Made by a program: the position numbers and the translations under genes. Source: a virus (lineage: Duplodnaviria; Heunggongvirae; Uroviricota; Caudoviricetes). Taken from it: a stretch of DNA of 19,414 nt. Where the stretch lies: IMG/VR virus record IMGVR_UViG_2529292911_000011. The stretch is one strand, 5' to 3'. A model generated the notes under the pieces. That model was not told the DNA's origin. It saw only the letters and a program-made list of their open reading frames with translations, and did not search any database. How positions within the stretch are numbered: position 1 is the first letter of the stretch; each line of letters begins with the position of its first letter. Below, one piece after another: positions 1 through 17,046 of the stretch.

Positions 1-1260
1 ATGCCAAAACTCACAGATATGCAGATCCGCGCATGGATAAAGGCGGGAGACAGATTTGATGGCAAGGCAGACGGCAACGGCCTTTATATTTGCTACCCAA
101 AAAACTACACAGTCCCGTTCTGGCGATTCCGCTATAAGCTCGCAGGAAAGCAGCGGGCTATGGTTATAGGCTCTTACTCCGAACTGTCACTATCAAAAGC
201 CAGAGAAACAGCAAAAGAGCTGTCAGCCAGAGTTGCTCTTGGCTATGACGTAGCAGCAGAGAAACAGGAACGAAAAGCTGAAGCACTGGCAAAAATGGAG
301 GCTGAGAAAAACGCCATGCGCGTTTCAGATCTGGCCGCCGAATACTTCGAGCGCCAGATACTTCCAAGATGGAAACATCCCGATATCCTTCGCCGGAGAA
401 TTGATAAGGATATTAACCCCTGCATTGGGCATATGAAGGTGGAGGACGTTAAGCCACGCCACATTGACGACATGTTGAAAGGTATCGTTGACCGAGGAGC
501 ACCAACGATAGCAACAGATGTATTACGCTGGACACGCCGTATCTTTGACTATGGGATAAAACGCCACGCTCTGGAGATAAACCCTTGTTCAGCGTTTGAA
601 GTATCTGATGCTGGTGGTAAAGAGGTTTCCCGCGACCGTTGGCTAACTCGCGATGAGCTTATCAGGCTATTCGAGGCTATGCGCACCGCAAAAGGATTCA
701 GCCGCCAGAACGAACTGACATTTAAGCTATTGCTGGCACTATGCGTTCGTAAGATGGAGTTATGCGCCGCACGATGGGAAGAGTTTGATTTAGATGGTGC
801 GGTATGGCATTTGCCGGAAGAACGCAGCAAAAACGGAGACCCTATTGATATACCTCTACCTTCCCCAGCCGTTGAATGGTTGAGAGAGCTACACACCTTT
901 TCATGTAATAGCGCATGGGTGCTTCCAGCCAGGAAGATGCAAAACAGAATGATCCCACATATTCAGGAAAGCACTTTGCCCGTAGCACTGGCTAAGGTTC
1001 GCGCCGAAATACCGGATGTGCCTAATTTCACGATTCACGACTTCCGACGCACCGCACGTACTCATTTAGCAGCGTTGGGTGTTGATCCTGTCGTGGCGGA
1101 ACGATGCCTCAATCATCGCATTAAGGGCGTAGAGGGGATTTATAACCGCCATCAGTATTTTGATGAGCGTAAAGCAGCACTGGCACAGTGGGCTGATCTG
1201 CTGGTGGCACTGGAAAGCGGAAAAGACCACAACGTAACGCCTCTCAGAAGGGCGAACTAA
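1..1260 (+). CDS. P4-type tyrosine recombinase (integrase)
   Basis: 419-aa ORF starting at window position 1. N-terminal arm 'LTDMQIRAWIK...GNGLYICYPK...WRFRYK' matches the pattern I recall for P4/CP4-57-family integrases; C-terminal 'HDFRRTARTH' (H-x-x-R) and tyrosine region 'GIYNRHQY'. Minus-strand ORFs at 164-896 are antisense shadows. Confidence 0.9.
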   Translation: MPKLTDMQIRAWIKAGDRFDGKADGNGLYICYPKNYTVPFWRFRYKLAGKQRAMVIGSYSELSLSKARETAKELSARVALGYDVAAEKQERKAEALAKMEAEKNAMRVSDLAAEYFERQILPRWKHPDILRRRIDKDINPCIGHMKVEDVKPRHIDDMLKGIVDRGAPTIATDVLRWTRRIFDYGIKRHALEINPCSAFEVSDAGGKEVSRDRWLTRDELIRLFEAMRTAKGFSRQNELTFKLLLALCVRKMELCAARWEEFDLDGAVWHLPEERSKNGDPIDIPLPSPAVEWLRELHTFSCNSAWVLPARKMQNRMIPHIQESTLPVALAKVRAEIPDVPNFTIHDFRRTARTHLAALGVDPVVAERCLNHRIKGVEGIYNRHQYFDERKAALAQWADLLVALESGKDHNVTPLRRAN

Positions 1261-1355
1261 CTGAATAGATTGAGCCTAGCTCGACGGGGCGAAAAGCGGG
1301 AAGCCTTACCGCCTGGCTCAATCACAAAATAAGGCGCAGCGTAAAAGGTGACGCA

Positions 1356-1887
1356 ATGAAAAAACTACCACCAAATCTCTTTTTCCGACTTAATAGAGCA
1401 GCAAATTTATTAGAAATAGAAGTCGATGATCTTCTACTTATGGGAGTATCAGGCTCTATATTTTTGAGCACAATAATTCACCAGTATGAAGGCGTACTCT
1501 ATCAAGCGGGAAACTTGCCACCAGACCACGGCAGCAAAGACATAGAAAACTTATTATTTGGTTCTATTATTTCTACTAGAGAAGATACCGAAAGATATCT
1601 AAATGAAGGTGTTTTCGATGGTATGAAGTGCTTAGCAAGTGGATTATGGCACGTTCCTAGTGATTTCATTGCTTCCCTTGCAGGGGTTAAGAGAGCCCCT
1701 GACATTCCACTCATATTCTCACCAGCATATATAAAAAAAGAACTAGATATCACATCAGGACGTTACTTTTTCTACGATTTTCGCGAACATGATACCACCG
1801 TATCGTCTGTGGAAGATTTGTATATATCAAGACCGTGGGTTGAATATATAGCTGAAAGCATGGATAAAAATCAGCCAATACCCAGCA
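1356..1887 (+). pseudogene. 5' fragment (177 codons) of an AT-rich gene of unknown function, interrupted by IS10
   Basis: ATG at 1356 with upstream 'aaaaggtga'. The reading frame runs into the IS10 inside end at 1888 and terminates at 1922 within IS-derived sequence. Removing the IS and one copy of the target duplication joins it in frame to 3226-3539, giving a 281-codon ORF. Markedly AT-rich by eye relative to the integrase. Confidence 0.7.
1879..1887. repeat. 9-bp target site duplication (TACCCAGCA), left copy
   Basis: Identical 9-mer directly abuts both IS10 termini (1879-1887 and 3217-3225); 9 bp is the duplication length IS10 makes. Confidence 0.9.
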
Positions 1888-3216
1888 CTGAGAGATCCCC
1901 TCATAATTTCCCCAAAGCGTAACCATGTGTGAATAAATTTTGAGCTAGTAGGGTTGCAGCCACGAGTAAGTCTTCCCTTGTTATTGTGTAGCCAGAATGC
2001 CGCAAAACTTCCATGCCTAAGCGAACTGTTGAGAGTACGTTTCGATTTCTGACTGTGTTAGCCTGGAAGTGCTTGTCCCAACCTTGTTTCTGAGCATGAA
2101 CGCCCGCAAGCCAACATGTTAGTTGAAGCATCAGGGCGATTAGCAGCATGATATCAAAACGCTCTGAGCTGCTCGTTCGGCTATGGCGTAGGCCTAGTCC
2201 GTAGGCAGGACTTTTCAAGTCTCGGAAGGTTTCTTCAATCTGCATTCGCTTCGAATAGATATTAACAAGTTGTTTGGGTGTTCGAATTTCAACAGGTAAG
2301 TTAGTTGCTAGAACCCATGGCTCCTTTGCCGACGCTGAGTAGATTTTAGGTGACGGGTGGTGACAATGAGTCCGTGTCGAGCGCTGATTTTTTCGGCCTT
2401 TAGAGCGAGATTTATACAATAGAATTTGGCATGAGATTGGATTGCTTTTAGTCAGCCTCTTATAGCCTAAAGTCTTTGAGTGACTAGATGACATATCATG
2501 TAAGTTGCTGATAGGTTTCCAGTTTTCCGCTCCTAGGTCTGCATATTGTACTTTTCCTCTTACTCGACTTAACCAGTACCAACCCAGCTTCTCAACGGAT
2601 TTATACCATGGCACTTTAAAGCCAGCATCACTGACAATGAGCGGTGTGGTGTTACTCGGTAGAATGCTCGCAAGGTCGGCTAGAAATTGGTCATGAGCTT
2701 TCTTTGAACATTGCTCTGAAAGCGGGAACGCTTTCTCATAAAGAGTAACAGAACGACCGTGTAGTGCGACTGAAGCTCGCAATACCATAAGTCGTTTTTG
2801 CTCACGAATATCAGACCAGTCAACAAGTACAATGGGCATCGTATTGCCCGAACAGATAAAGCTAGCATGCCAACGGTATACAGCGAGTCGCTCTTTGTGG
2901 AGGTGACGATTACCTAACAATCGGTCGATTCGTTTGATGTTATGTTTTGTTCTCGCTTTGGTTGGCAGGTTACGGCCAAGTTCGGTAAGAGTGAGAGTTT
3001 TACAGTCAAGTAATGCGTGGCAAGCCAACGTTAAGCTGTTGAGTCGTTTTAAGTGTAATTCGGGGCAGAATTGGTAAAGAGAGTCGTGTAAAATATCGAG
3101 TTCGCACATCTTGTTGTCTGATTATTGATTTTTCGCGAAACCATTTGATCATATGACAAGATGTGTATCCACCTTAACTTAATGATTTTTACCAAAATCA
3201 TTAGGGGATTCATCAG
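1888..3216 (-). mobile_element. IS10 insertion sequence, complete copy (1329 bp)
   Basis: Inside end 'CTGAGAGATCCCCTCATAATTTCCCC' at 1888; outside end (reverse complement of 'CTGATGAATCCCCTAATGATTTTGGTAAAAATCATTAAG') ending at 3216; full-length transposase between them; flanked by a 9-bp direct repeat. Length is exactly 1329 bp. Single copy, no tet genes, so not a composite Tn10. Confidence 0.95.
1901..3109 (-). CDS. IS10 transposase
   Basis: 402-aa ORF 'MCELDILHDSLYQFCPELHLKRLNSLTLACHALL...' that I recognise as the IS10/Tn10 (IS4-family) transposase; lies entirely inside the IS10 ends. Confidence 0.95.
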   Translation of the reverse strand: MCELDILHDSLYQFCPELHLKRLNSLTLACHALLDCKTLTLTELGRNLPTKARTKHNIKRIDRLLGNRHLHKERLAVYRWHASFICSGNTMPIVLVDWSDIREQKRLMVLRASVALHGRSVTLYEKAFPLSEQCSKKAHDQFLADLASILPSNTTPLIVSDAGFKVPWYKSVEKLGWYWLSRVRGKVQYADLGAENWKPISNLHDMSSSHSKTLGYKRLTKSNPISCQILLYKSRSKGRKNQRSTRTHCHHPSPKIYSASAKEPWVLATNLPVEIRTPKQLVNIYSKRMQIEETFRDLKSPAYGLGLRHSRTSSSERFDIMLLIALMLQLTCWLAGVHAQKQGWDKHFQANTVRNRNVLSTVRLGMEVLRHSGYTITREDLLVAATLLAQNLFTHGYALGKL

Positions 3217-3225
3217 TACCCAGCA
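3217..3225. repeat. 9-bp target site duplication (TACCCAGCA), right copy
   Basis: Exact copy of 1879-1887, immediately after the IS10 outside end. Confidence 0.9.
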
Positions 3226-3539
3226 TACTCCATTTGGGTTCACACGATCTTTATGAAAAGGAATTTAAAAACATAGAGCATGGAAATAGAGCACGACATA
3301 GCCTGAACCGTGAGAATAGCATTATGGCGTTGATTTATGTGAAACGGCACTATCCGGAAGAGTGCAAAGGGAAAAACGGGAAAGAAACCAACGAAGCGTG
3401 GGCAAACGCTACGATAGACCACTGGCCACATGTGGGTGGCGATTATGATGAACCATCTACAGATTATTTAAAGAAGATCATATCTGACATGGACAGATTG
3501 CCGGAAAAACGTACCACGGCAGGAAAGAAGAAATCATGA
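3226..3539 (+). pseudogene. 3' fragment of the IS10-interrupted gene
   Basis: Continues the 1356 frame once IS10 plus one duplication copy are removed (junction reads ...QPIPS|ILHLGSHDLYEKEFK...); stop at 3537-3539. The ORF track shows it as an orphan 101-aa ORF from 3234. Confidence 0.65.
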
Positions 3540-3651
3540 TAATAAAATTTAGTATCGTGACAATAAAATTTACTGTAATTCACTTTTGAGCATGCACACC
3601 ATTAAATACCCGTAACGAAGCAACAACTATCGCTAAGAGGTTACGGGAAGC
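3539..3651 (+). promoter_or_regulatory. Putative alpA upstream control region
   Basis: Perfect 11-bp direct repeat 'AATAAAATTTA' at 3541-3551 and 3563-3573. 8-bp inverted repeat 'CCCGTAAC' (3609-3616) / 'GTTACGGG' (3640-3647) whose right arm overlaps the alpA Shine-Dalgarno 'AAGAGG'. No promoter hexamers were confirmed. Confidence 0.3.
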
Positions 3652-3855
3652 ATGAACACCGACACGATTCCTACAAAAGGCTATATCAGACGCTTTCGCC
3701 TGGCTGAATTGCTGGGCGTTAGTGTATCCACCATCGACCGTAAAGTAAGAAACGGTTCACTACCACGTCCGGTAAAGCTGGGAGAAAAAATAACTGCGTT
3801 TGATGCGGTTGAGATTCACAACTGGCTGGCAGAACGCCGCGGGAAGGTGGCCTGA
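3652..3855 (+). CDS. alpA: AlpA-family transcriptional regulator (phage-type HTH)
   Basis: 67 aa; 'RLAELLGVSVSTIDRKVRNGSLPRPVKLGEKITAFDAVEIHNWL' matches the AlpA helix-turn-helix pattern; SD 'AAGAGG' upstream; positioned downstream of the integrase as in P4-type islands. Confidence 0.85.
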   Translation: MNTDTIPTKGYIRRFRLAELLGVSVSTIDRKVRNGSLPRPVKLGEKITAFDAVEIHNWLAERRGKVA

Positions 3856-5132: not shown

Positions 5133-5307
5133 GCCAACAGGAACACCACAACCACAAAAACGCTACAAAGATGCCCACGGAGCACTCGTTACTGTCGAAA
5201 GCGTGTCTCACAACCGAGTGACGTTTTATCGCGACGGGTATCAATCGCCATGCGTACAACCGCTGGCACGTTTCATGAAGGAGTTCGCGGAGGTTAACAA
5301 ATGCTAA
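5125..5307 (+). CDS. Small protein (60 aa), possibly DUF4222-like
   Basis: ATG at 5125 preceded by SD 'GGAGGTGG' (5113-5120); the 89-aa track ORF from 5038 is probably an over-extension. 'RYKDAHGALVTVESVSHNRVTFYRDGYQSPCVQPLARF' resembles small prophage proteins annotated DUF4222 from memory. Confidence 0.5.
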   Translation: MSKPTGTPQPQKRYKDAHGALVTVESVSHNRVTFYRDGYQSPCVQPLARFMKEFAEVNKC

Positions 5308-6329
5308 CCGTCCAGAAGAAGACATTTTCACTGGCAGGTATGTCGCCAAAATCCAGCAATATGACGGCAAAGTCAGGCATTAATACAGCAGATGCAAGCA
5401 AAGTTTATCATTTGCTGGTGGTCGGAACGGATGCCTTAACCATACCAGAAATCTCGGGCGATGATATTAGCATTGAGAAGGTCAGCGGCTGCGCCAGAAA
5501 ATTTCTGGTCGTAGATGATGTCTTCCGCTCGTGTAGTGACTCCACAAAAACATTCGTCCACGTGCGTGACGTTAACGAAATGAGCGCGATGTACTGTGCA
5601 TCTGGTGCTTCCAATACTGAGTTTTCGGAGTCCATAAAAAAGAGCTTGCCGTTATGCGGCAACACGGTTTATGGTTATAAGGCACCTCATAAAACGGGTG
5701 CCGGGATTGGCCTCCCGCTGACAATCGAGGCGATACATGACGCGCCAGCGTCTTTTTTTGTATCGGCGCACACGCACACCTTATCAATGGTGGGCTGTAT
5801 GGGGCTACCTTCGGGTAGGCTGGTTTCCTTGATTGCCAGTAAGGCCAACTCCGTACAGTCCACCGCCAGCAAGATTGGTCTCTTGGGCGGTGGCTATAAA
5901 CCATCAATCAAGGAGGCTGCCACATGCTGGCTACTACCCCTACCCCAAAACCGCAATTTATCTGGATTATCGCCGCAGTTCGCCGCGATTGCCCGACAAT
6001 TACCGCCAAAATTCATCATATTGCTGCCGAGTCTGAACGCGATGCTCGCCGTTCTCTGGTGCGCGATCACGTCTGCTTTTTTGCTGGTCGTATCCGCATG
6101 GAGGTGGCACATGATTAAAACCTACGATGTGCATATGGATCCCCTCGAACGCACAAGCCAGATCATCACACTGACAGAAGTGATTAACGACATTCTGGTG
6201 AGCAACTCTCCCTCACGAGACGAAAGACTGAAGGCGTTACTCGCGATATTGGATCTCGCCGTTCGTGACGTTCATTTCCTGCTGGAAGGTGGACAAATGC
6301 CATGCAAAACGGGGGCAACCAATGAATAA
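5301..6329 (+). CDS. Stop-free 342-codon frame of uncertain coding status; its 3' 73 codons (from ATG 6111) are the best-supported part
   Basis: ATG at 5301 overlaps the upstream stop (ATGCTAA). The frame is open for 1029 nt. An in-frame ATG at 6111 has a strong SD 'GGAGGTGG' (6101-6108). An out-of-frame ORF with its own strong SD (5924-6118) sits inside it, so the 5301-6110 part may be non-coding or an overlapping gene. Confidence 0.3.
5924..6118 (+). CDS. Small protein (64 aa), possibly Icd-like host cell division inhibitor
   Basis: Consensus SD 'AGGAGG' (5911-5916) 7 nt before ATG 5924; stop overlaps ATG 6111 (ATGATTAA). '[27 protein letters not shown]' resembles prophage proteins annotated Icd-like, from memory only. 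Confidence 0.45.
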   Translation: MLATTPTPKPQFIWIIAAVRRDCPTITAKIHHIAAESERDARRSLVRDHVCFFAGRIRMEVAHD

Positions 6330-7601: not shown

Positions 7602-10358
7602 ATGCGAAACATTGATCTTATCCGTCAGGTTATCAGTGCGTCTGAAAACAACTGGCCTCATGTGCTGGGCTGCCTGAACATAAATGTCCCTGACTCTCCG
7701 CGCCGTCATGCTCCCTGCCCTGCATGTGGGGGCAAAGATCGATTCCGGTTCGATGACAACGGGCGCGGTAGCTTCATCTGTAATCAGTGCGGCGCTGGTG
7801 ATGGGCTGGATTTAATTAAACGCGTAAATAACTGCGACACAACAGAGGCGGCGCTTCTTGCCGCTGATGTTCTGGGTATTGATTACCGGACAACGGAAAC
7901 ACCAGAAGCCACCAGCCAGAAACGGGAACAACTGGAAACCGAGCGCCAGCGACGCGAACAGGAGCGCCTGAAAAGGGCAGAGAAGGACGAACAACAAAGA
8001 CGGGATACGTTTTCCCGTCAGTTTGATGACATGCGCAGAAAGGCTGTAAACGGCAAATCTGATTATCTGGTTGCGAAAGGGGTAGGTGATTTTACATTCC
8101 CCGTGTTGCCCGATGGATCTCTGTTGCTGGCGCTGGTGGATAAATCCGGCGCAGTCACAGCAGCACAGACTATTACCTCACATGGTGAAAAAAGACTCCT
8201 GACAGGTTCAGCAAAGCGAGGGGCATATCACGCCATAAACGCACCAGAAACAACACAGAGCATCTTAATCGCAGAAGGGCTGGCAACGGCATTATCTGCC
8301 CATTTAATTCGTCCAGAGGCGCTGACAGTGGCGGCGATTGATGCCGGGAACCTGTTATATGTCGCCCAGGTACTGCGGGATAAATTTCCTTCAGCACAAA
8401 TCATCATTGCTGCGGATAACGACCACAGCGAAGGAAGACAAAACACGGGGAGAATAGCAGCAGAAAAAGCAGCTTTATCTGTTTCTGGATGGGTGGCATT
8501 ACCCCCGACAGATCACAAAGCAGACTGGAATGATTACCACCAAAAACACGGCATTAAATGCGCCACAGAAGCGTTCAATAAGTCAATGTACCAACCACAG
8601 GGTAATGGCGTGAAACAGGAGCCACAGACCATTGAGGGAAGCGATTTTAAGGTTATGGATACCGACCCACTGAAACCAAGAATAGAAAGCCGCGAGGATG
8701 GTATTTATTGGGTATCTCCGAGAGCTGACAGCCAGAGTGGAGAAATCATCAATAACGAAAGCTGGTTATGTTCTCCGTTAAGCGTTATCGGTACTGGCAG
8801 AGACGATAAAGACCAGTATCTCATTCTTCGCTGGCTGTCGTTTGGTTCTGAAACGCCGACAACCGCTGCCATTCCACTGGCTGATATTGGTGAACGTGAA
8901 GGATGGCGCACACTTAAAGCTGGTGGGGTAAATGTCACGACCAAAAGCAGCCTCAGAGCAATACTGGCAGACTGGCTACAACGCAGTGGCTCTCGTGAAT
9001 TGTGGCGTGTTGCTCATGCCACTGGCTGGCAATGCGGAGCGTACATCATGCCTGATGGGGAAATCATCGGAACACCTGAAAATCCTGTGCTGTTCAGCGG
9101 GAGAAGCTCAGCCGCAGCCGGATATACCGTCTCAGGGAGCGCGAAAAGCTGGCGTGATAACGTGGCGCGTCTGGCCTTTGGTAACTATTCAATGATGACC
9201 GGGATCGGCGCAGCACTGGCAGCGCCATTGATTGGGCTGGTGGGCGCTGACGGGTTCGGCATTCATTTCTATGAGCAGTCGAGCGCGGGTAAGACCACCA
9301 CGGCAAACGTGGCGAGCAGCTTATACGGCAACCCTGATTTACTGCGGCTGACGTGGTACGGAACCGCGCTGGGGCTGGCAAATGAGGCCGCCGCCCACAA
9401 TGACGGATTAATGCCGCTTGATGAAGTTGGTCAGGGCGCTGATCCTGTCAGCGTTTCACAGTCTGCCTATGCGTTATTTAACGGTGTAGGGAAACTGCAA
9501 GGCGCTAAAGATGGTGGAAACCGTGATCTAAAACGCTGGCGTACAGTGGCAATCAGCACCGGAGAAATGGATTTAGAAACATTTATCGCTACTTCTGGGC
9601 GAAAAACCAAAGCCGGGCAACTGGTGCGACTGCTGAATATTCCGTTGAGTAAAGCAGTACGCTTTCACGATTACCAGAACGGAAAACAGCACGCAGACGC
9701 ACTGAAAGACGCTTACCAGCATCACCACGGCGCAGCCGGGCGTGAGTGGATTAAATGGCTGGCAGACCACCAGCAACAGGCTATTAAAACTGTTCGTGAT
9801 TGCGAAAGCAGATGGAGAAGCCTGATCCCATCCGATTATGGTGAGCAGGTTCACCGTGTAGCCGCGCGATTTGCCATTCTGGAGGCAGCATTGCTGTTAG
9901 GCGAAGTTGTAACAGGCTGGGATGCTCAGACATGCCGTGATGCGATACAGCACAGCTATAACGCATGGTTGCGCGAGTTCGGCACAGGTAACAAAGAACA
10001 TCAGCAGATTATTGAACAAACGGAGGCATTTCTTAATGCCTATGGGCTTAGCCGTTTTGCACCATTTCCATACAGCCCGGCAGATTTGCCCATCAAAGAT
10101 TTAGCCGGATACCGTCAGCGTGGAGAACATGACGAAAGCCCAATGATTTTCTACACATTCCCGGCCACATTTGAAAAGGAGATCGCATGTGGTTTCAACG
10201 CAAAACAGTTTGCTGAAGTGTTGAAAAAAGCCGGGATGCTAACCCCACCAAACAGCGGTCGTGGATACCAAAGAAAATCACCACGTATTCAGGGACGACA
10301 AATAAACGTTTATGTACTCAATTACCAGCCAGGAGATTATAACTCATCTGAAGAATGA
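7602..10358 (+). CDS. DNA primase-helicase (N-terminal zinc ribbon + TOPRIM + C-terminal P-loop ATPase), P4 alpha / PICI Pri-Rep type
   Basis: 918 aa. Cys cluster 'CPACGG...CNQCG' near the N-terminus; TOPRIM-like 'LIAEGLATALS' and 'IIAADNDHSEG'; Walker A-like 'YEQSSAGKTT'. Iteron cluster lies immediately downstream. Confidence 0.9.
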   Translation: MRNIDLIRQVISASENNWPHVLGCLNINVPDSPRRHAPCPACGGKDRFRFDDNGRGSFICNQCGAGDGLDLIKRVNNCDTTEAALLAADVLGIDYRTTETPEATSQKREQLETERQRREQERLKRAEKDEQQRRDTFSRQFDDMRRKAVNGKSDYLVAKGVGDFTFPVLPDGSLLLALVDKSGAVTAAQTITSHGEKRLLTGSAKRGAYHAINAPETTQSILIAEGLATALSAHLIRPEALTVAAIDAGNLLYVAQVLRDKFPSAQIIIAADNDHSEGRQNTGRIAAEKAALSVSGWVALPPTDHKADWNDYHQKHGIKCATEAFNKSMYQPQGNGVKQEPQTIEGSDFKVMDTDPLKPRIESREDGIYWVSPRADSQSGEIINNESWLCSPLSVIGTGRDDKDQYLILRWLSFGSETPTTAAIPLADIGEREGWRTLKAGGVNVTTKSSLRAILADWLQRSGSRELWRVAHATGWQCGAYIMPDGEIIGTPENPVLFSGRSSAAAGYTVSGSAKSWRDNVARLAFGNYSMMTGIGAALAAPLIGLVGADGFGIHFYEQSSAGKTTTANVASSLYGNPDLLRLTWYGTALGLANEAAAHNDGLMPLDEVGQGADPVSVSQSAYALFNGVGKLQGAKDGGNRDLKRWRTVAISTGEMDLETFIATSGRKTKAGQLVRLLNIPLSKAVRFHDYQNGKQHADALKDAYQHHHGAAGREWIKWLADHQQQAIKTVRDCESRWRSLIPSDYGEQVHRVAARFAILEAALLLGEVVTGWDAQTCRDAIQHSYNAWLREFGTGNKEHQQIIEQTEAFLNAYGLSRFAPFPYSPADLPIKDLAGYRQRGEHDESPMIFYTFPATFEKEIACGFNAKQFAEVLKKAGMLTPPNSGRGYQRKSPRIQGRQINVYVLNYQPGDYNSSEE

Positions 10359-10370
10359 GCTTCTTCATGT

Positions 10371-10484
10371 GCGTAGAAAAGGTGTTGGTTCAGTTGGTTC
10401 AGTTGGTTCAATTTGCAAAGAGTATTGTTTTGTAAGGATTTTATTCTTTTTATTGAACCAACACTGAACCAACAACACGGTATT
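10371..10484 (+). repeat. Iteron cluster A (putative origin of replication)
   Basis: Three tandem 9-bp 'GTTGGTTCA' repeats (10374-10400), a ~40-bp AT-rich spacer, then three inverted 'TGAACCAAC' copies (10444-10452, 10455-10463, 10476-10484). Sits directly 3' of the primase-helicase. Confidence 0.8.
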
Positions 10485-10813
10485 TTGAACCAACACAATG
10501 TGACTGAATTGATGCGCTCAACACCTGGCTGGCATCAGAGAGTGTTTTACGAGACTTTCGTAAAATCCTGTGTACAAGGGCGTGACGTTTTTGAAAGTGA
10601 GCACTACGAAATTTTCGTAGTTCAGAAAACAGCCCCTGAGAAGTTGTTATGCCTGTTCAGCAAACCATCCGCATAGCTGATCGCGAATCAAATTACCAAT
10701 GGAGCCAGAAGCAAGGGCAGAACTGAAAAGCGCCTGCCGTGAAGAGTAATGCGACACCATAAATATAGTTTTTAGAGTCCATAAAAAACCTGTCAAAACC
10801 TGACACACAGAAC

Positions 10814-10942: not shown

Positions 10943-11116
10943 ATGGCTATTTCAGTAAAGCCGGTATTGATAAGTGAGAAGCAAATGGAAGCGATAAAGA
11001 AAATTCAGGAGGAGCAGCGTAAAAAATCAGAGGTAGGAGTTGCGCCAACGATCCACGAAATTGCTCGGGGATTAATGGATAAGGCGCTGGCTTACACTTT
11101 AACTGGACGTGGGTAA
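10943..11116 (+). CDS. Small protein (57 aa), possible ribbon-helix-helix DNA-binding protein
   Basis: Not in the ORF track (under 60 aa). ATG 10943 with SD 'AAGGGGG' (10932-10938). 'KPVLISEKQMEAIKKIQEE...GVAPTIHEIARGLMDKAL' has a strand-helix-loop-helix layout compatible with an Arc/CopG-like fold. Ends 4 nt before the next ATG. Confidence 0.45.
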   Translation: MAISVKPVLISEKQMEAIKKIQEEQRKKSEVGVAPTIHEIARGLMDKALAYTLTGRG

Positions 11117-11120
11117 ATCA

Positions 11121-12587
11121 ATGGCTACGTGGCAACAGGGTATTAATTCTGGTGGTTTTCTGGCTGGCATCGGTACGCAAAATGAGAATGCGCCAAAGGC
11201 AAGCGACATTAACGCAACGCTTGGTCTGATTCGCGAAAACAATGAACTGGCTCGATCAGGTGCAAATAACGTTGCTCTGACAGGTCTTCGTGGTCTGGCT
11301 GGAGTTGCTGATATTTATAAGCAGCAGCAACAGCAGGAGCGTAAAGCGGCATTCCAGAAAGGTTATGCAGATGCTTATGCGTCCGGTGACAGGGAGCAGA
11401 TGCGTAATCTTATTACAGCATTCCCAGAAGAGTTTGAGGAAGTCCGTAAAGGGATGAGTTATGTCGATGATGCTCAAAGGGATGATTATGGCAATCTGGC
11501 GCTCAAAGCACAGGTAGCCTCATCGCTTGGTCCGGGCGCATTTGGCAGGTTCATGATGGATAATGAGCAGGAGATGCGTCGTTTAGGTATCCCTCCAGAA
11601 ACTATTGCTGAAATGCAGGTTAATGACCCGCAGGGCTTCCAGCATTTCGCAGGTAATCTGGCGCTGTTTTCTCTCGGTCATGAGAAGTATTTCGATATCA
11701 AAGATCAAATGGAAAGTCGGGATATTGAGCGTGGCAAGTTGGCAGAGACAATCCGCAGCAATCAGGCTGGTGAAGCACTTCAGGCGAGAGGGCAGGATAT
11801 TAGCCGAGCAAATGCGTTAACGTCAGCATATGCACCAACAGCAGCAATGCAGAATTACAATCAGTACGCGCAAATGTTAAAGGCTGATCCAGAGGGGGCG
11901 GCGGCATTTGCGGCAGCGGCTGGAATTAATACAAACACCAAAAAATTAATGAGTGTTAGAGAAAACGATGATGGCACTGTCACAAAATACTACACAGACG
12001 GAAGTGAAGAGCAGGGAAAACTAAACCAGCCAATATCTGGAGATGGGTTTCGTCCAATAGCTTTGCCAACAGCCCAAAAGATCATGGAAAAGTCGCCAGA
12101 AGGGGCTAAAAAAGCTGCTGGATTTGCATACAGGGTTAGGGATGCTCTTGATTCAATAGATACACTGAAAGACCAGCTTAGCCCACAGCGAGTGGCGATC
12201 ATTAATAATGCTTTGGGTAATGGGACGCTGGCTAACTTAACGCTCAGCCCAGCAGAGCAGCAATACGTTGTTAATGCTAATGACGCAATAATGGCAATAC
12301 TCCGTCAGGAAACAGGGGCAGCTATCGCACCTGCTGAAATGTCAAAATATTATCAAATGTATTTCCCTCAGCCTGGCGACTCCACAAAAACCATTGATAC
12401 CAAGCGCCGGAAGATGGAAAACCAGTTCAATTCGCTGAAAGCTGCTTCTGGTCGAACTTATGATGCTTTGCGGGTTATTTCAGCAGTTGACAGAGGAACT
12501 GCTTCTTCGTCGCAGACATTGCCGCAATCTGAGCAGGTATCACAGCCAGCAGCCAGCAGTAACTTTTCTTCACTATGGGGTGATTAA
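11121..12587 (+). CDS. Hypothetical protein (488 aa), Gln/Ala-rich, function unknown
   Basis: ATG 11121 (the track's GTG at 11109 is an alternative start). Poly-Q stretch 'KQQQQQERK', Ala-rich tracts; no catalytic motif recognised. Stop overlaps the start of the next gene (TAATG). Confidence 0.8.
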   Translation: MATWQQGINSGGFLAGIGTQNENAPKASDINATLGLIRENNELARSGANNVALTGLRGLAGVADIYKQQQQQERKAAFQKGYADAYASGDREQMRNLITAFPEEFEEVRKGMSYVDDAQRDDYGNLALKAQVASSLGPGAFGRFMMDNEQEMRRLGIPPETIAEMQVNDPQGFQHFAGNLALFSLGHEKYFDIKDQMESRDIERGKLAETIRSNQAGEALQARGQDISRANALTSAYAPTAAMQNYNQYAQMLKADPEGAAAFAAAAGINTNTKKLMSVRENDDGTVTKYYTDGSEEQGKLNQPISGDGFRPIALPTAQKIMEKSPEGAKKAAGFAYRVRDALDSIDTLKDQLSPQRVAIINNALGNGTLANLTLSPAEQQYVVNANDAIMAILRQETGAAIAPAEMSKYYQMYFPQPGDSTKTIDTKRRKMENQFNSLKAASGRTYDALRVISAVDRGTASSSQTLPQSEQVSQPAASSNFSSLWGD

Positions 12588-14692
12588 TGGCTAAAGCATG
12601 GAAAGATGTTATCGCCTCTCCACAGTATCAGGCGTTAGCACCAGAACAAAAAGCGCAGGCTCAGGAGCAATACTTCAATGAAGTCGTTGCCCCGCAAGCC
12701 GGAGAAAGTGTAGAGCAGGCTAAGCAGGCTTTTTATGCTGCCTATCCACTACCATCAACGAATGAAATAGACCGATCCCAATCAGCAACTCAAAATATTC
12801 AACATACATCATCTGATAATTCTATTGCGTCAGGGTATGCAAAGTTAGCTACTCAGCAAAGAGAGGGGCTTGAGCGTTCAGCAGAACAGGGAGCCAGTCT
12901 TGGGGCTGCGATGCGCGATGCTATAACAGGCGAAAGCCGAATGACTCCAGAGATGGAGAGACTGCAAAATGTCGACCTTGCCCCAGAGTTAACCTCACTC
13001 AGCATGGATGCTCTAAAAGCTCGATGGTCTCAACTTTTCGGCTCTGACGCATCTCAGGAAAAGATTCTTCAGAGCATGGGAGCGAAATTAAGGCAGGATG
13101 AGAAGGGTAACACTATCGTTTCCCTGCCATCCGGTGATTATGCTCTGAACAAGCCGGGTTTATCGCCGCAAGACGTGGCATCGTTTCTGGCTAATGCGCT
13201 GGCGTTTACACCAGCGGGCAGGGCCGGAACGGTGCTGGGGGCCATAGGGAAATCAGCAGCTACAGATTTAGCACTACAGGGAGCCACCAGCCTCGCTGGT
13301 GGAGAAGATATTGATCCGTTACAAACGGTAATTTCTGCTGGCATTGGTGGTATTGGTAAGGGGCTGGAAAATACAGCGAGTGCGGTTTCGAGGGCTGTTC
13401 GTGGTGATATGTCGCCTGAAGCAAAGGCTGCTGTCGACTTTGCATCGGAAAGAAATCTGCCGTTAATGACCAGTGACATGCTGAAAGATAAAACCTTTAT
13501 GCAGAGTCAGGCTCAGACATTAGGCGAAAGAGTTCCTTTTTTTGGAACCGGTAAGAATCGGCTGAATCAACAACAAGCACGAGAAAATTTAGTCAGAACA
13601 TTTAGCGATGGTCTGGGTGGCATTTCTGATAAACAGCTTTATGAATCTGCGACTAAAGGGCAACAAAAATTCATTGAGGCAGCAGGAAAGCGATATAACC
13701 GCATAATTGACGCTATGGGGGATACCCCTGTCGATCTCTCAAACACGGTAAAAGCTATCGACAATCAGATTGCCGTGTTAAGCCGCCCGGGCAAATCTCA
13801 GGATAGAGCCGCGGTAAAAGTCTTGCAGCAATTTAAAGACGATATCACCAGCGGACCAAATGACCTGCGTCTGGCGAGGGAAAACAGAACCGATCTTCGA
13901 AAGCGATTTATGGCGTCATCTGACACTGTTGATAAAGATACGCTCCAGAAAGCCAGCGATATTATCTACAAGGCATATACGGCGGATATGAAAAAAGCCG
14001 TAGCCAAAAATCTTGGAGCAGACGAAGCTATTAATATGGCAAGGGTTGATCGCTCATGGTCTAAATTCAATGACATGATGGGAAGAACGCGCGTTCAAAA
14101 GGCAATAGCCAGCGGCAAGGCCACGCCTGAGGATGTAACAAAACTTGTTTTTAGCCAAAGCCCATCAGAACGTTCTCAGCTTTACAGGCTTCTGGATGAC
14201 AATGGTAGGCAAAACGCACGAGCAGCCATAGTTCAGAATGCTGTAGATAAGGCGACTGATCCGTCTGGAAATATCAGTGTTGAGAAGTTTATTAATGCGT
14301 TACACCGGAACAGGAAGCAATCAGCAACTTTCTTTAAAGGCATACATGGAAAGGAACTGGACGGCGTTATTAAATACCTCAACGATACAAGACACGCGGC
14401 AAAAGCGAACGTTCAAAACTTAAATGGTCAGCAGCTTTATGGATTGTTAGTTGGTGGTGGCATCATAAACGCAGCAGTATTAGCGGGGATGCTAAAAACG
14501 GCTGCGTTTGTTGTTCCTGCTGCTGGTGCCGTAGGCGGAGCAGCGAAGGCATACGAAAGCCCTGTTATACGAAATGCCTTGTTACGTCTGGCAAATACGC
14601 CAAAAGGTAGCACAGCATATGACAGAGCGATCAGTACGGTCACACAATCACTGACCACAGCAGCACAAGCATCGCAAAAGGAAGCTCAATAA
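12587..14692 (+). CDS. Hypothetical protein (701 aa), helical low-complexity with a C-terminal Gly/Ala-rich hydrophobic segment, function unknown
   Basis: Translationally coupled to the upstream gene. Residues ~617-656 'LYGLLVGGGIINAAVLAGMLKTAAFVVPAAGAVGGAAKAY' (nt ~14435-14554) look like a glycine-zipper/transmembrane segment. No nucleotide-binding or nuclease motif recognised. Confidence 0.85.
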   Translation: MAKAWKDVIASPQYQALAPEQKAQAQEQYFNEVVAPQAGESVEQAKQAFYAAYPLPSTNEIDRSQSATQNIQHTSSDNSIASGYAKLATQQREGLERSAEQGASLGAAMRDAITGESRMTPEMERLQNVDLAPELTSLSMDALKARWSQLFGSDASQEKILQSMGAKLRQDEKGNTIVSLPSGDYALNKPGLSPQDVASFLANALAFTPAGRAGTVLGAIGKSAATDLALQGATSLAGGEDIDPLQTVISAGIGGIGKGLENTASAVSRAVRGDMSPEAKAAVDFASERNLPLMTSDMLKDKTFMQSQAQTLGERVPFFGTGKNRLNQQQARENLVRTFSDGLGGISDKQLYESATKGQQKFIEAAGKRYNRIIDAMGDTPVDLSNTVKAIDNQIAVLSRPGKSQDRAAVKVLQQFKDDITSGPNDLRLARENRTDLRKRFMASSDTVDKDTLQKASDIIYKAYTADMKKAVAKNLGADEAINMARVDRSWSKFNDMMGRTRVQKAIASGKATPEDVTKLVFSQSPSERSQLYRLLDDNGRQNARAAIVQNAVDKATDPSGNISVEKFINALHRNRKQSATFFKGIHGKELDGVIKYLNDTRHAAKANVQNLNGQQLYGLLVGGGIINAAVLAGMLKTAAFVVPAAGAVGGAAKAYESPVIRNALLRLANTPKGSTAYDRAISTVTQSLTTAAQASQKEAQ

Positions 14693-16890: not shown

Positions 16891-17013
16891 TTGGTTCACG
16901 GCCTCTTTTTGTTGGTTCAAAAATGGGGTGTGTTGGTTCACATTTTGCGAATAATCCTTTTAAAAACAATACTCTTTGCAAATTGAACCAACTGAACCAA
17001 CTGAACCAACACC
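16891..17013 (-). repeat. Iteron cluster B (second ori-like / cis replication region), inverted relative to cluster A
   Basis: On the minus strand: three tandem 'GTTGGTTCA' (plus-strand 'TGAACCAAC' at 16984-17010), an AT-rich spacer, then three dispersed copies (16891-16898, 16912-16919, 16933-16940). Positions 16963-17013 are the exact reverse complement of 10371-10421 (51 bp). Confidence 0.8.
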
Positions 17014-17046
17014 TTTTTGCTTATCTATATAGTCTGAGAGGCAGAA

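Follow-up and report, generated by a model that had tools for sequence, protein, structure and literature searches.

The 19,414-nt stretch of viral DNA analyzed here (the window; IMG/VR record IMGVR_UViG_2529292911_000011) carries the insertion sequence (IS) IS10 within a gene, here called X, that lies between an integrase gene (int) and alpA. We infer that X is an allele of a hyperdiverse protein family with an N-terminal winged helix of the MerR/Xis/AlpA type, a variable middle, and a conserved C-terminus. Together with tandem repeats at its 3' end, the gene resembles a cassette for regulation or specificity more than it does arbitrary cargo, and the specific reading that X is a swappable regulator-plus-operator cassette controlling alpA stands, in our judgment, at about an even chance. 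The IS10 insertion, judged by its undecayed ends and flanks, is real, recent, and ordinary; the interest lies in the gene family and not in this routine event. If the cassette reading is true, a hyperdiverse, positionally fixed DNA-binding family would be a concrete candidate for helper-phage sensing by Gram-negative phage-inducible chromosomal islands (PICIs).

Gene X and its family between int and alpA

Gene X, its interruption, and the left end of the island comprise the following features.

1..1260, plus strand: tyrosine integrase, 419 aa, at the left island end (Pfam Arm-DNA-bind_3, Phage_int_M, and Phage_integrase)
1269..1335, plus strand: int-alpA RNA motif (Rfam RF02996; cmscan 60.6 bits, gathering score 35.8)
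1356..1887, plus strand: 5' fragment of gene X, codons 1-177, with the winged-helix domain and variable core, 100% identical to intact alleles
1888..3216, minus strand: IS10 (ISVsa5-type), exactly 1329 bp, with its outside end at 3216
3226..3539, plus strand: 3' fragment of gene X, codons 178-281, with the conserved C-terminal helical domain

As it stands, the interrupted gene reads into IS10 and ends at 1922, giving a product of 188 aa, and an in-frame open reading frame (ORF) beginning with TTG lies within the 3' fragment (3234-3539). The original prediction held that removal of the IS would restore a single 281-codon ORF and that uninterrupted alleles should be sought in related strains. 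In silico excision, joining 1356-1887 to 3226-3539, gave 846 nt (281 codons plus a stop), with full-length 100% identity to a gene annotated as a hypothetical protein in 14 complete Escherichia coli genomes, including that of strain 042 (EC042_RS21010/WP_000735991.1). Because these 14 genomes carry the identical intact ORF, the restored frame is not one without intact homologs. The allele (X281) was found in 38 of 5426 complete genomes. The gene was also correctly described as more AT-rich than its neighbors: restored X has a G+C content of 39.8%, int one of 49.8%, and the window as a whole one of 47.0%.

Other disruptions of the same allele were found. In E. coli MIN6 (NZ_CP069692.1; locus L019, 4001-6182), an IS3-family element interrupts it at about codon 116, and another truncation, present in 10 contigs (proteins P0157 and P0168, listed with the disrupted forms), ends after codon 174 and continues into the foreign tail RLAP. 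These independent disruptions, together with IS10 in the window, indicate recurrent loss of X, and the two IS insertions, in the window and in MIN6, constitute ready-made natural X mutants.

The slot between int and alpA was predicted to be variable, and this was borne out among the 331 complete genomes carrying a window-type integrase (267 of them at at least 95% identity). At least four different occupants, each with a G+C content of 36-42%, were found behind integrases that are mostly at least 95% identical:

281 aa, the window gene (X281): 38 genomes
316 aa, L009-type: 41 genomes
321 aa, L010-type: 77 genomes
216 aa, L008-type: 112 genomes

Three of these four are divergent alleles of one superfamily (hidden Markov model [HMM] E values of 1e-47 to 1e-78). 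The HMM built from X relatives matched the 316-aa (E = 1e-47) and 321-aa (E = 1e-56) proteins end to end and did not match the 216-aa L008-type protein. X remnants were looked for in the slots of L008 and of EcCIMP1, an experimentally verified E. coli PICI mobilized by phage Kapi1 (PMC11773190), and none were found. YfjH, which occupies the int-alpA slot of CP4-57 in E. coli K-12, was considered as a family member and rejected (HMM E = 0.053; opposite strand). A related-locus search of genome contigs with alignment A2 found none.

The position of the family is fixed despite its diversity. The order int, X, alpA on one strand was found in 12 of 12 independent contexts, with X identities down to about 20-25%; the contexts were drawn from E. 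coli, Leclercia, Enterobacter, an NCBI draft-genome contig (L015), Logan assemblies of sequencing runs, and metagenome contigs. This order is kept despite unrelated replication genes (DUF927, D5_N/Pox_D5, or VapE), and integrases of at least 98% identity are found with X alleles, and with repeats, that are unrelated to one another. The int-alpA RNA motif is located not beside alpA but in the gap from the int stop codon to the X start codon; it has the same place in L002, L010, L012, and L015 and is absent where X starts a few nucleotides from int. It may be a leader or terminator controlling X. The variable block extends from the end of int to about 3608 and therefore includes X, the repeats, and the putative alpA promoter.

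When 1.84 billion representative proteins were searched with a profile, 173 X-family clusters at 50% identity were obtained, most of them with proteins of 260-380 aa and typically matched in an N-terminal and a separate C-terminal stretch. In the conservation profile, two stretches (residues 9-37 and 195-228) are conserved and three (residues 51-92, 111-150, and 171-194) hypervariable; IS10 separates the variable core from the conserved C-terminal domain. The original prediction suggested searching the restored 281-aa protein against protein and defense-system models. X belonged to no family in the Pfam, NCBIfam, PHROGs, or PADLOC scans; no defense-system model matched, with 0 defense families at E <= 1 in PADLOC-DB 2.0. 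Among 50 X relatives, Pfam gave only one match, a weak one to HTH_17 (E = 0.005). There was no meaningful match in a PDB sequence search, no match by tblastn against 50,697 phage records, nothing for WP_000735991 in a literature search, and no description of the family in the literature searched.

A confident AlphaFold2 model of X was built from a 50-sequence alignment (predicted local distance difference test [pLDDT] score of 84.8; a 9-sequence run with a pLDDT of 58.5 was not used). The model has a winged helix (residues 9-50), a beta-rich middle, and a C-terminal helical domain (197-266). The N-terminal 50 residues or so superpose on Xis (4j2n), an AlpA-family excisionase (8c3t), BldC (6amk), and MerR regulators; the rest gave no significant Foldseek match in the PDB or BFVD and no enzymatic or effector fold. 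A profile comparison of X with AlpA was weak but in register (E = 0.002; hhalign probability, 13%). Assignment of X to the MerR family was rejected, there being no Pfam MerR match and no long coiled-coil dimerization helix. Membership in the Xis/AlpA (HTH_17) family, whose proteins have about 60-75 aa, was likewise rejected: X has 281 aa and no Pfam match, and the likeness is structural only. Xis, AlpA, BldC, and MerR proteins thus share the N-terminal winged-helix fold with X, which is four to five times longer.

Allele-specific repeats and the proposed role of X

Between the conserved C-terminal codons of X and alpA, the window contains the following features.

3533..3577, plus strand: two tandem repeat units of 19 nt, 21 bp apart, candidate operators that overlap the X stop codon; reported by the tool as ATCATGATAATAAAATTTA (3533-3551) and ATCGTGACAATAAAATTTA (3554-3572), and re-registered as GATAATAAAATTTAGTATC (3538-3556) and GACAATAAAATTTACTGTA (3559-3577)
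3579..3607, plus strand: putative alpA promoter, with -35 element TTCACT (3579-3584) and -10 element TTAAAT (3602-3607)
3609..3647, plus strand: conserved alpA leader, in which the inverted repeat CCCGTAAC N23 GTTACGGG encloses the ribosome-binding site
3652..3855, plus strand: alpA, 67 aa (Pfam Phage_AlpA and HTH_17)

The repeat score of the window was reached by 0 of 1000 shuffles, and both units are conserved throughout the X281 clade. A repeat pair spaced 20-22 bp was present in 8 of 12 loci (reached by at most 9 of 1000 shuffles), and 21-22 bp was the best spacing between 10 and 40 in most of these eight. Counted from the coordinates, the distance from the end of the second repeat to the alpA start codon is 65-81 nt in each of these eight loci. 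The repeat sequences are unrelated between distant X alleles.

A phylogenetic footprint from the X281-clade spacers (alignment A5) gave, in order, two repeat units, a -35 element, a 17-nt spacer of variable, nonconserved sequence, a -10 element, and a conserved leader with a ribosome-binding site. The footprint probably represents the alpA promoter, with the repeat sites centered near -46 and -67; a consensus promoter scanner called no alpA promoter. An operator of the MerR type, lying inside a promoter spacer of 19-20 bp, was rejected, as the repeats are upstream of the -35 element and the spacer has 17 nt. The conserved leader forms the right boundary of the variable cassette, and its inverted repeat, which is common to the E. 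coli, Leclercia, and Enterobacter islands whatever the X allele, may be a hairpin that acts in translation or a site bound by AlpA.

The repeats track X and not AlpA. The AlpA proteins of the window, L002, L009, and L010 are 97-100% identical, but their upstream elements vary with the X allele; in L003 and L004, AlpA is only 69-75% identical, X is of the same clade, and the units GATAnTAAA..TTA..ATC are kept. Near-identical AlpA proteins therefore face different elements, and X proteins of the same clade keep their repeats despite divergent AlpA. This bears on the alternative in which the repeats would serve AlpA autoregulation or be an AT-rich UP element, the function of X being unrelated to them. 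AlpA does activate its own promoter (PMC6092414), the repeats, which are AT-rich, are located upstream of the -35 element, and the L008-type slot, whose protein is outside the X family, also has repeats upstream of alpA at 20- to 21-bp spacing. However, the 100% identical AlpA proteins of the window and L010 face entirely different upstream elements, the 72-aa AlpA proteins of L003 and L008 are visibly similar (by eye) and yet their repeats differ, and the X281 clade conserves the repeat flanks GATA..ATC but not the spacer. We regard this alternative as improbable.

The repeats of the L008-type slot (E. coli 21AR0303, L008 8254-8307) consist of two to three copies of TCTTTCAATAGAT at about 20- to 21-bp spacing, which follow the 216-aa gene and lie upstream of a different alpA allele. 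Because this slot has its own repeats, other cassette types may own regulator-and-site pairs.

In the cassette reading, X would bind the allele-specific repeats at the alpA promoter and set alpA expression; each allele would owe a specificity of its own, possibly toward a helper-phage signal, to the hypervariable middle; and X, repeats, and alpA promoter would be exchanged as one block between int and alpA. In PICIs of Gram-negative bacteria, alpA is the master activator (PMC6092414, PMC11773190), and its expression is turned on by the helper phage, whether there is a global repressor being left as a question (PMC6092414). We lean toward X acting as a repressor of alpA, which is suggested by its likely cotranscription with int and by analogy with Stl, the repressor of Staphylococcus aureus pathogenicity islands (SaPIs).

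Cotranscription is also a point in favor of a different role, that of an integration/excision accessory factor, in which X would be a large Xis-like directionality or architectural protein working with the adjacent integrase. X always lies directly downstream of int, sometimes by only 4-13 nt, which suggests cotranscription, and excisionases (4j2n, 8c3t) share its N-terminal fold. Direct repeats are the sites to which proteins of the Xis and BldC types bind head to tail. Against such a role, about 2.3 kb (IS10 excluded) separate the repeats from the island end, too much for att arm sites; integrases at least 98% identical go with unrelated X alleles and repeats; and alpA already provides an Xis-like function, EcCIMP1 excising without X. 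On balance an excision factor seems very unlikely.

The original prediction took X for probable horizontally acquired cargo. The variable slot and the AT-rich gene agree with acquisition; the fixed position, the winged helix, and the allele-specific repeats suit arbitrary cargo less well. A more definite version, in which X would be an accessory anti-phage or superinfection-exclusion protein and the repeats would serve alpA regulation or be incidental, draws on the same variability and on the 36-42% G+C content of every occupant. It would also agree with the dispensability of X for PICI function, EcCIMP1 lacking the gene; with the hyperdiversity of the family, as is often seen in immune genes; with the recurrent disruption by IS10, by the IS3-family element in MIN6, and by the third truncation, which suits a costly gene; and with the carriage of defense genes by satellites, as described in literature cited in PMC11773190. 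The PADLOC, Pfam, NCBIfam, and PHROGs scans left X unmatched, however, and its sole recognizable domain is a DNA-binding winged helix, with no enzymatic or effector fold. Furthermore, cargo would not account for the strictly fixed position and orientation beside alpA in all 12 contexts, nor for cognate repeats that track the X allele rather than AlpA. We consider this explanation unlikely, if less so than an excision factor.

Several points weigh against X as the controller of alpA. DNA binding by X is predicted from the modeled winged helix and from sequence, and no part of the family is better conserved than the winged helix, though the repeats differ by allele. In L009 and L010, the equivalent place holds a perfect palindrome followed by a T-run instead of tandem repeats; this palindrome could be a terminator, an operator, or both. 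Repeat positions near -46 and -67 suit activation as well as repression. EcCIMP1 is functional without X, so X is optional for the satellite cycle; EcCICFT073 also seems to lack it, to judge solely from ORF naming, in that its alpA appears to be ORF2, as implied by the published name ORF3 for the gene after alpA. The window island has a P4-type C4/isrK RNA immunity module, so X need not be the master control, and it may be an extra layer of control beside C4/isrK. Finally, because the gene is repeatedly disrupted in nature, X is unlikely to fit the role of an essential repressor.

The cassette reading can be extended to the whole family, which would then be a helper-phage sensor and regulator for a large subset of Gram-negative PICI-type satellites, a functional analog of Stl swapped, with its operators and promoter, as a block like an immunity region. 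The winged helix would attach to the tandem operators of its own allele at the alpA promoter, and a helper-phage protein would be recognized by the hypervariable middle. We put this extension forward tentatively and think it doubtful as a whole.

The IS10 element and its predicted effects

IS10 and its insertion site comprise the following further features.

1879..1887: left copy of the 9-bp target duplication, TACCCAGCA
3109..1901, minus strand: IS10 transposase ORF, intact, 402 aa (Pfam DDE_Tnp_1, E = 1.5e-24)
3089-3094: -10 element TAAAAT of pOUT
3102..3171, plus strand: RNA-OUT, the pOUT transcript (Rfam RF00240, 98.8 bits), which reads outward from IS10, facing the 3' part of X and alpA
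3217..3225: right copy of the 9-bp target duplication, TACCCAGCA

The ends of the element, CTGAGAGATCCCC... and ...GGGGATTCATCAG, are imperfect terminal inverted repeats, alike at 17 of 23 positions, and the chance probability of the 9-bp duplication match is about 4e-6. The element was originally described as a complete, recent IS10 with an intact duplication, and the 1329-bp length, the 402-aa transposase, RNA-OUT, and the exact 9-bp copies agree with that description; the insertion is taken as recent because the IS and its flanks are undecayed, the duplication is intact, and the excised ORF equals the intact alleles. The target consensus of IS10 is NGCTNAGCN, and the window target, TACCCAGCA, fits only its right half (AGC). 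Many E. coli genomes carry IS copies 100% identical to this IS10, annotated as ISVsa5 or IS4-like. The junction in gene X was absent from all complete E. coli genomes searched; a partial protein from one draft assembly (P0166, 177 aa) stops exactly at it.

The insertion would strip the conserved C-terminal domain from X, leaving the 188-aa N-terminal product, would interrupt any read-through from int and X into alpA, and would place pOUT upstream of the repeats and alpA. Loss of the C-terminus, the cut in read-through, and the placement of pOUT together suggest that induction control of the window island is probably altered. An influence of the outward promoter on alpA had been proposed; pOUT and RNA-OUT do face alpA, whose start codon is 481 bp past the RNA-OUT end, and an effect on alpA expression may follow from this arrangement.

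The island and its relation to known systems

The window matches the E. coli 042 island between yicC and dinD, and its integrase is 99.9% identical to the integrase of that island, which is next to yicC. The gene order in the window is int, X, alpA, a hypothetical gene, an AntA antirepressor gene, an ash-family gene, a primase gene (TOPRIM/DUF927, 918 aa; 7602-10358), ejection genes, and PerC. A unidirectional int-alpA-primase core was found, without capsid, tail, or lysis genes and with ejection proteins as the sole phage-like gene products; by this gene content, the island is an EcCIMP1-like PICI.

Several other features of the island and its relatives were observed. RNAs of the P4-type immunity module, isrK (65 bits; 5682-5758) and C4 antisense RNA (79 bits; 5783-5870), are encoded on the plus strand of this PICI-like island inside the ash-family ORF (5301-6329), and the pair is also present in EcCIMP1, L003, L008, L009, L010, and L015. 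A perfect 55-nt inverted repeat containing three GTTGGTTCA iterons occurs at 10377-10431 and 16963-17017. One copy lies directly downstream of the primase gene, the expected place for an origin, and the other is 6.5 kb away, so that the pair flanks the ejection-protein module; a second, weaker inverted-repeat pair lies at 10465-10498 and 16907-16940. The iteron-bearing repeats could be two origins or substrates for inversion. The P22-type DNA-ejection genes (11109-14692, plus strand) include one matching Pfam Inj_translocase (E = 7e-84) and a 701-aa neighbor, with no capsid or tail genes. In E. coli 042 (L001 29127-30424), about 1.3 kb with a DUF2824 gene and a 225-aa gene are found where the window has about 210 bp (11091-11301). 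In one strain, E. coli MS14385 (L010 2142-3101, minus strand), a reverse transcriptase family gene, possibly a retron, lies between slmA and pyrE, just outside the island.

EcCIMP1 has the backbone int, alpA, AntA, DUF4222, and ash with C4/isrK in common with the window, as well as the TOPRIM/DUF927 primase, P22-type ejection proteins, and PerC, several of these proteins being identical by accession. It differs in its tRNA-Thr integration site, in its integrase, and in its int-alpA slot, which has only 428 bp and holds a small ORF, EcCIMP1_002, and no X-family gene. Helper-dependent induction, excision, and packaging have been demonstrated for EcCIMP1 with Kapi1 (PMC11773190), whereas the window island is known from sequence.

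The IS of the window has the same length, inverted repeats, 402-aa DDE transposase, and 9-bp duplication as IS10-right of Tn10, for which activation of genes from pOUT is known, and the two are alike in the outward-reading RNA-OUT at the outside end, with no structural difference.

Stl of the SaPIs is, like X, a protein with a DNA-binding domain encoded beside int and the island regulatory switch, and it is highly divergent between SaPIs, reflecting different helper-phage inducers, as summarized in PMC6092414. No relationship between Stl and X was detected in sequence or fold. The Stl gene and its target are divergently transcribed, whereas X has the same orientation as alpA and lies upstream of it; repression by Stl is relieved by a helper-phage protein, and by analogy the same might hold for X. 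In contrast to Stl, the master repressor of SaPIs, X is optional in Gram-negative PICIs. In the lambdoid immunity regions (imm lambda, imm434, and imm21), regulator, operators, and promoter are swapped as a block between elements that are nearly identical elsewhere, as would be the case for the X cassette. The lambdoid repressors have a helix-turn-helix of the lambda-repressor type, whereas X has a predicted winged helix of the MerR/Xis type and a unidirectional gene order.

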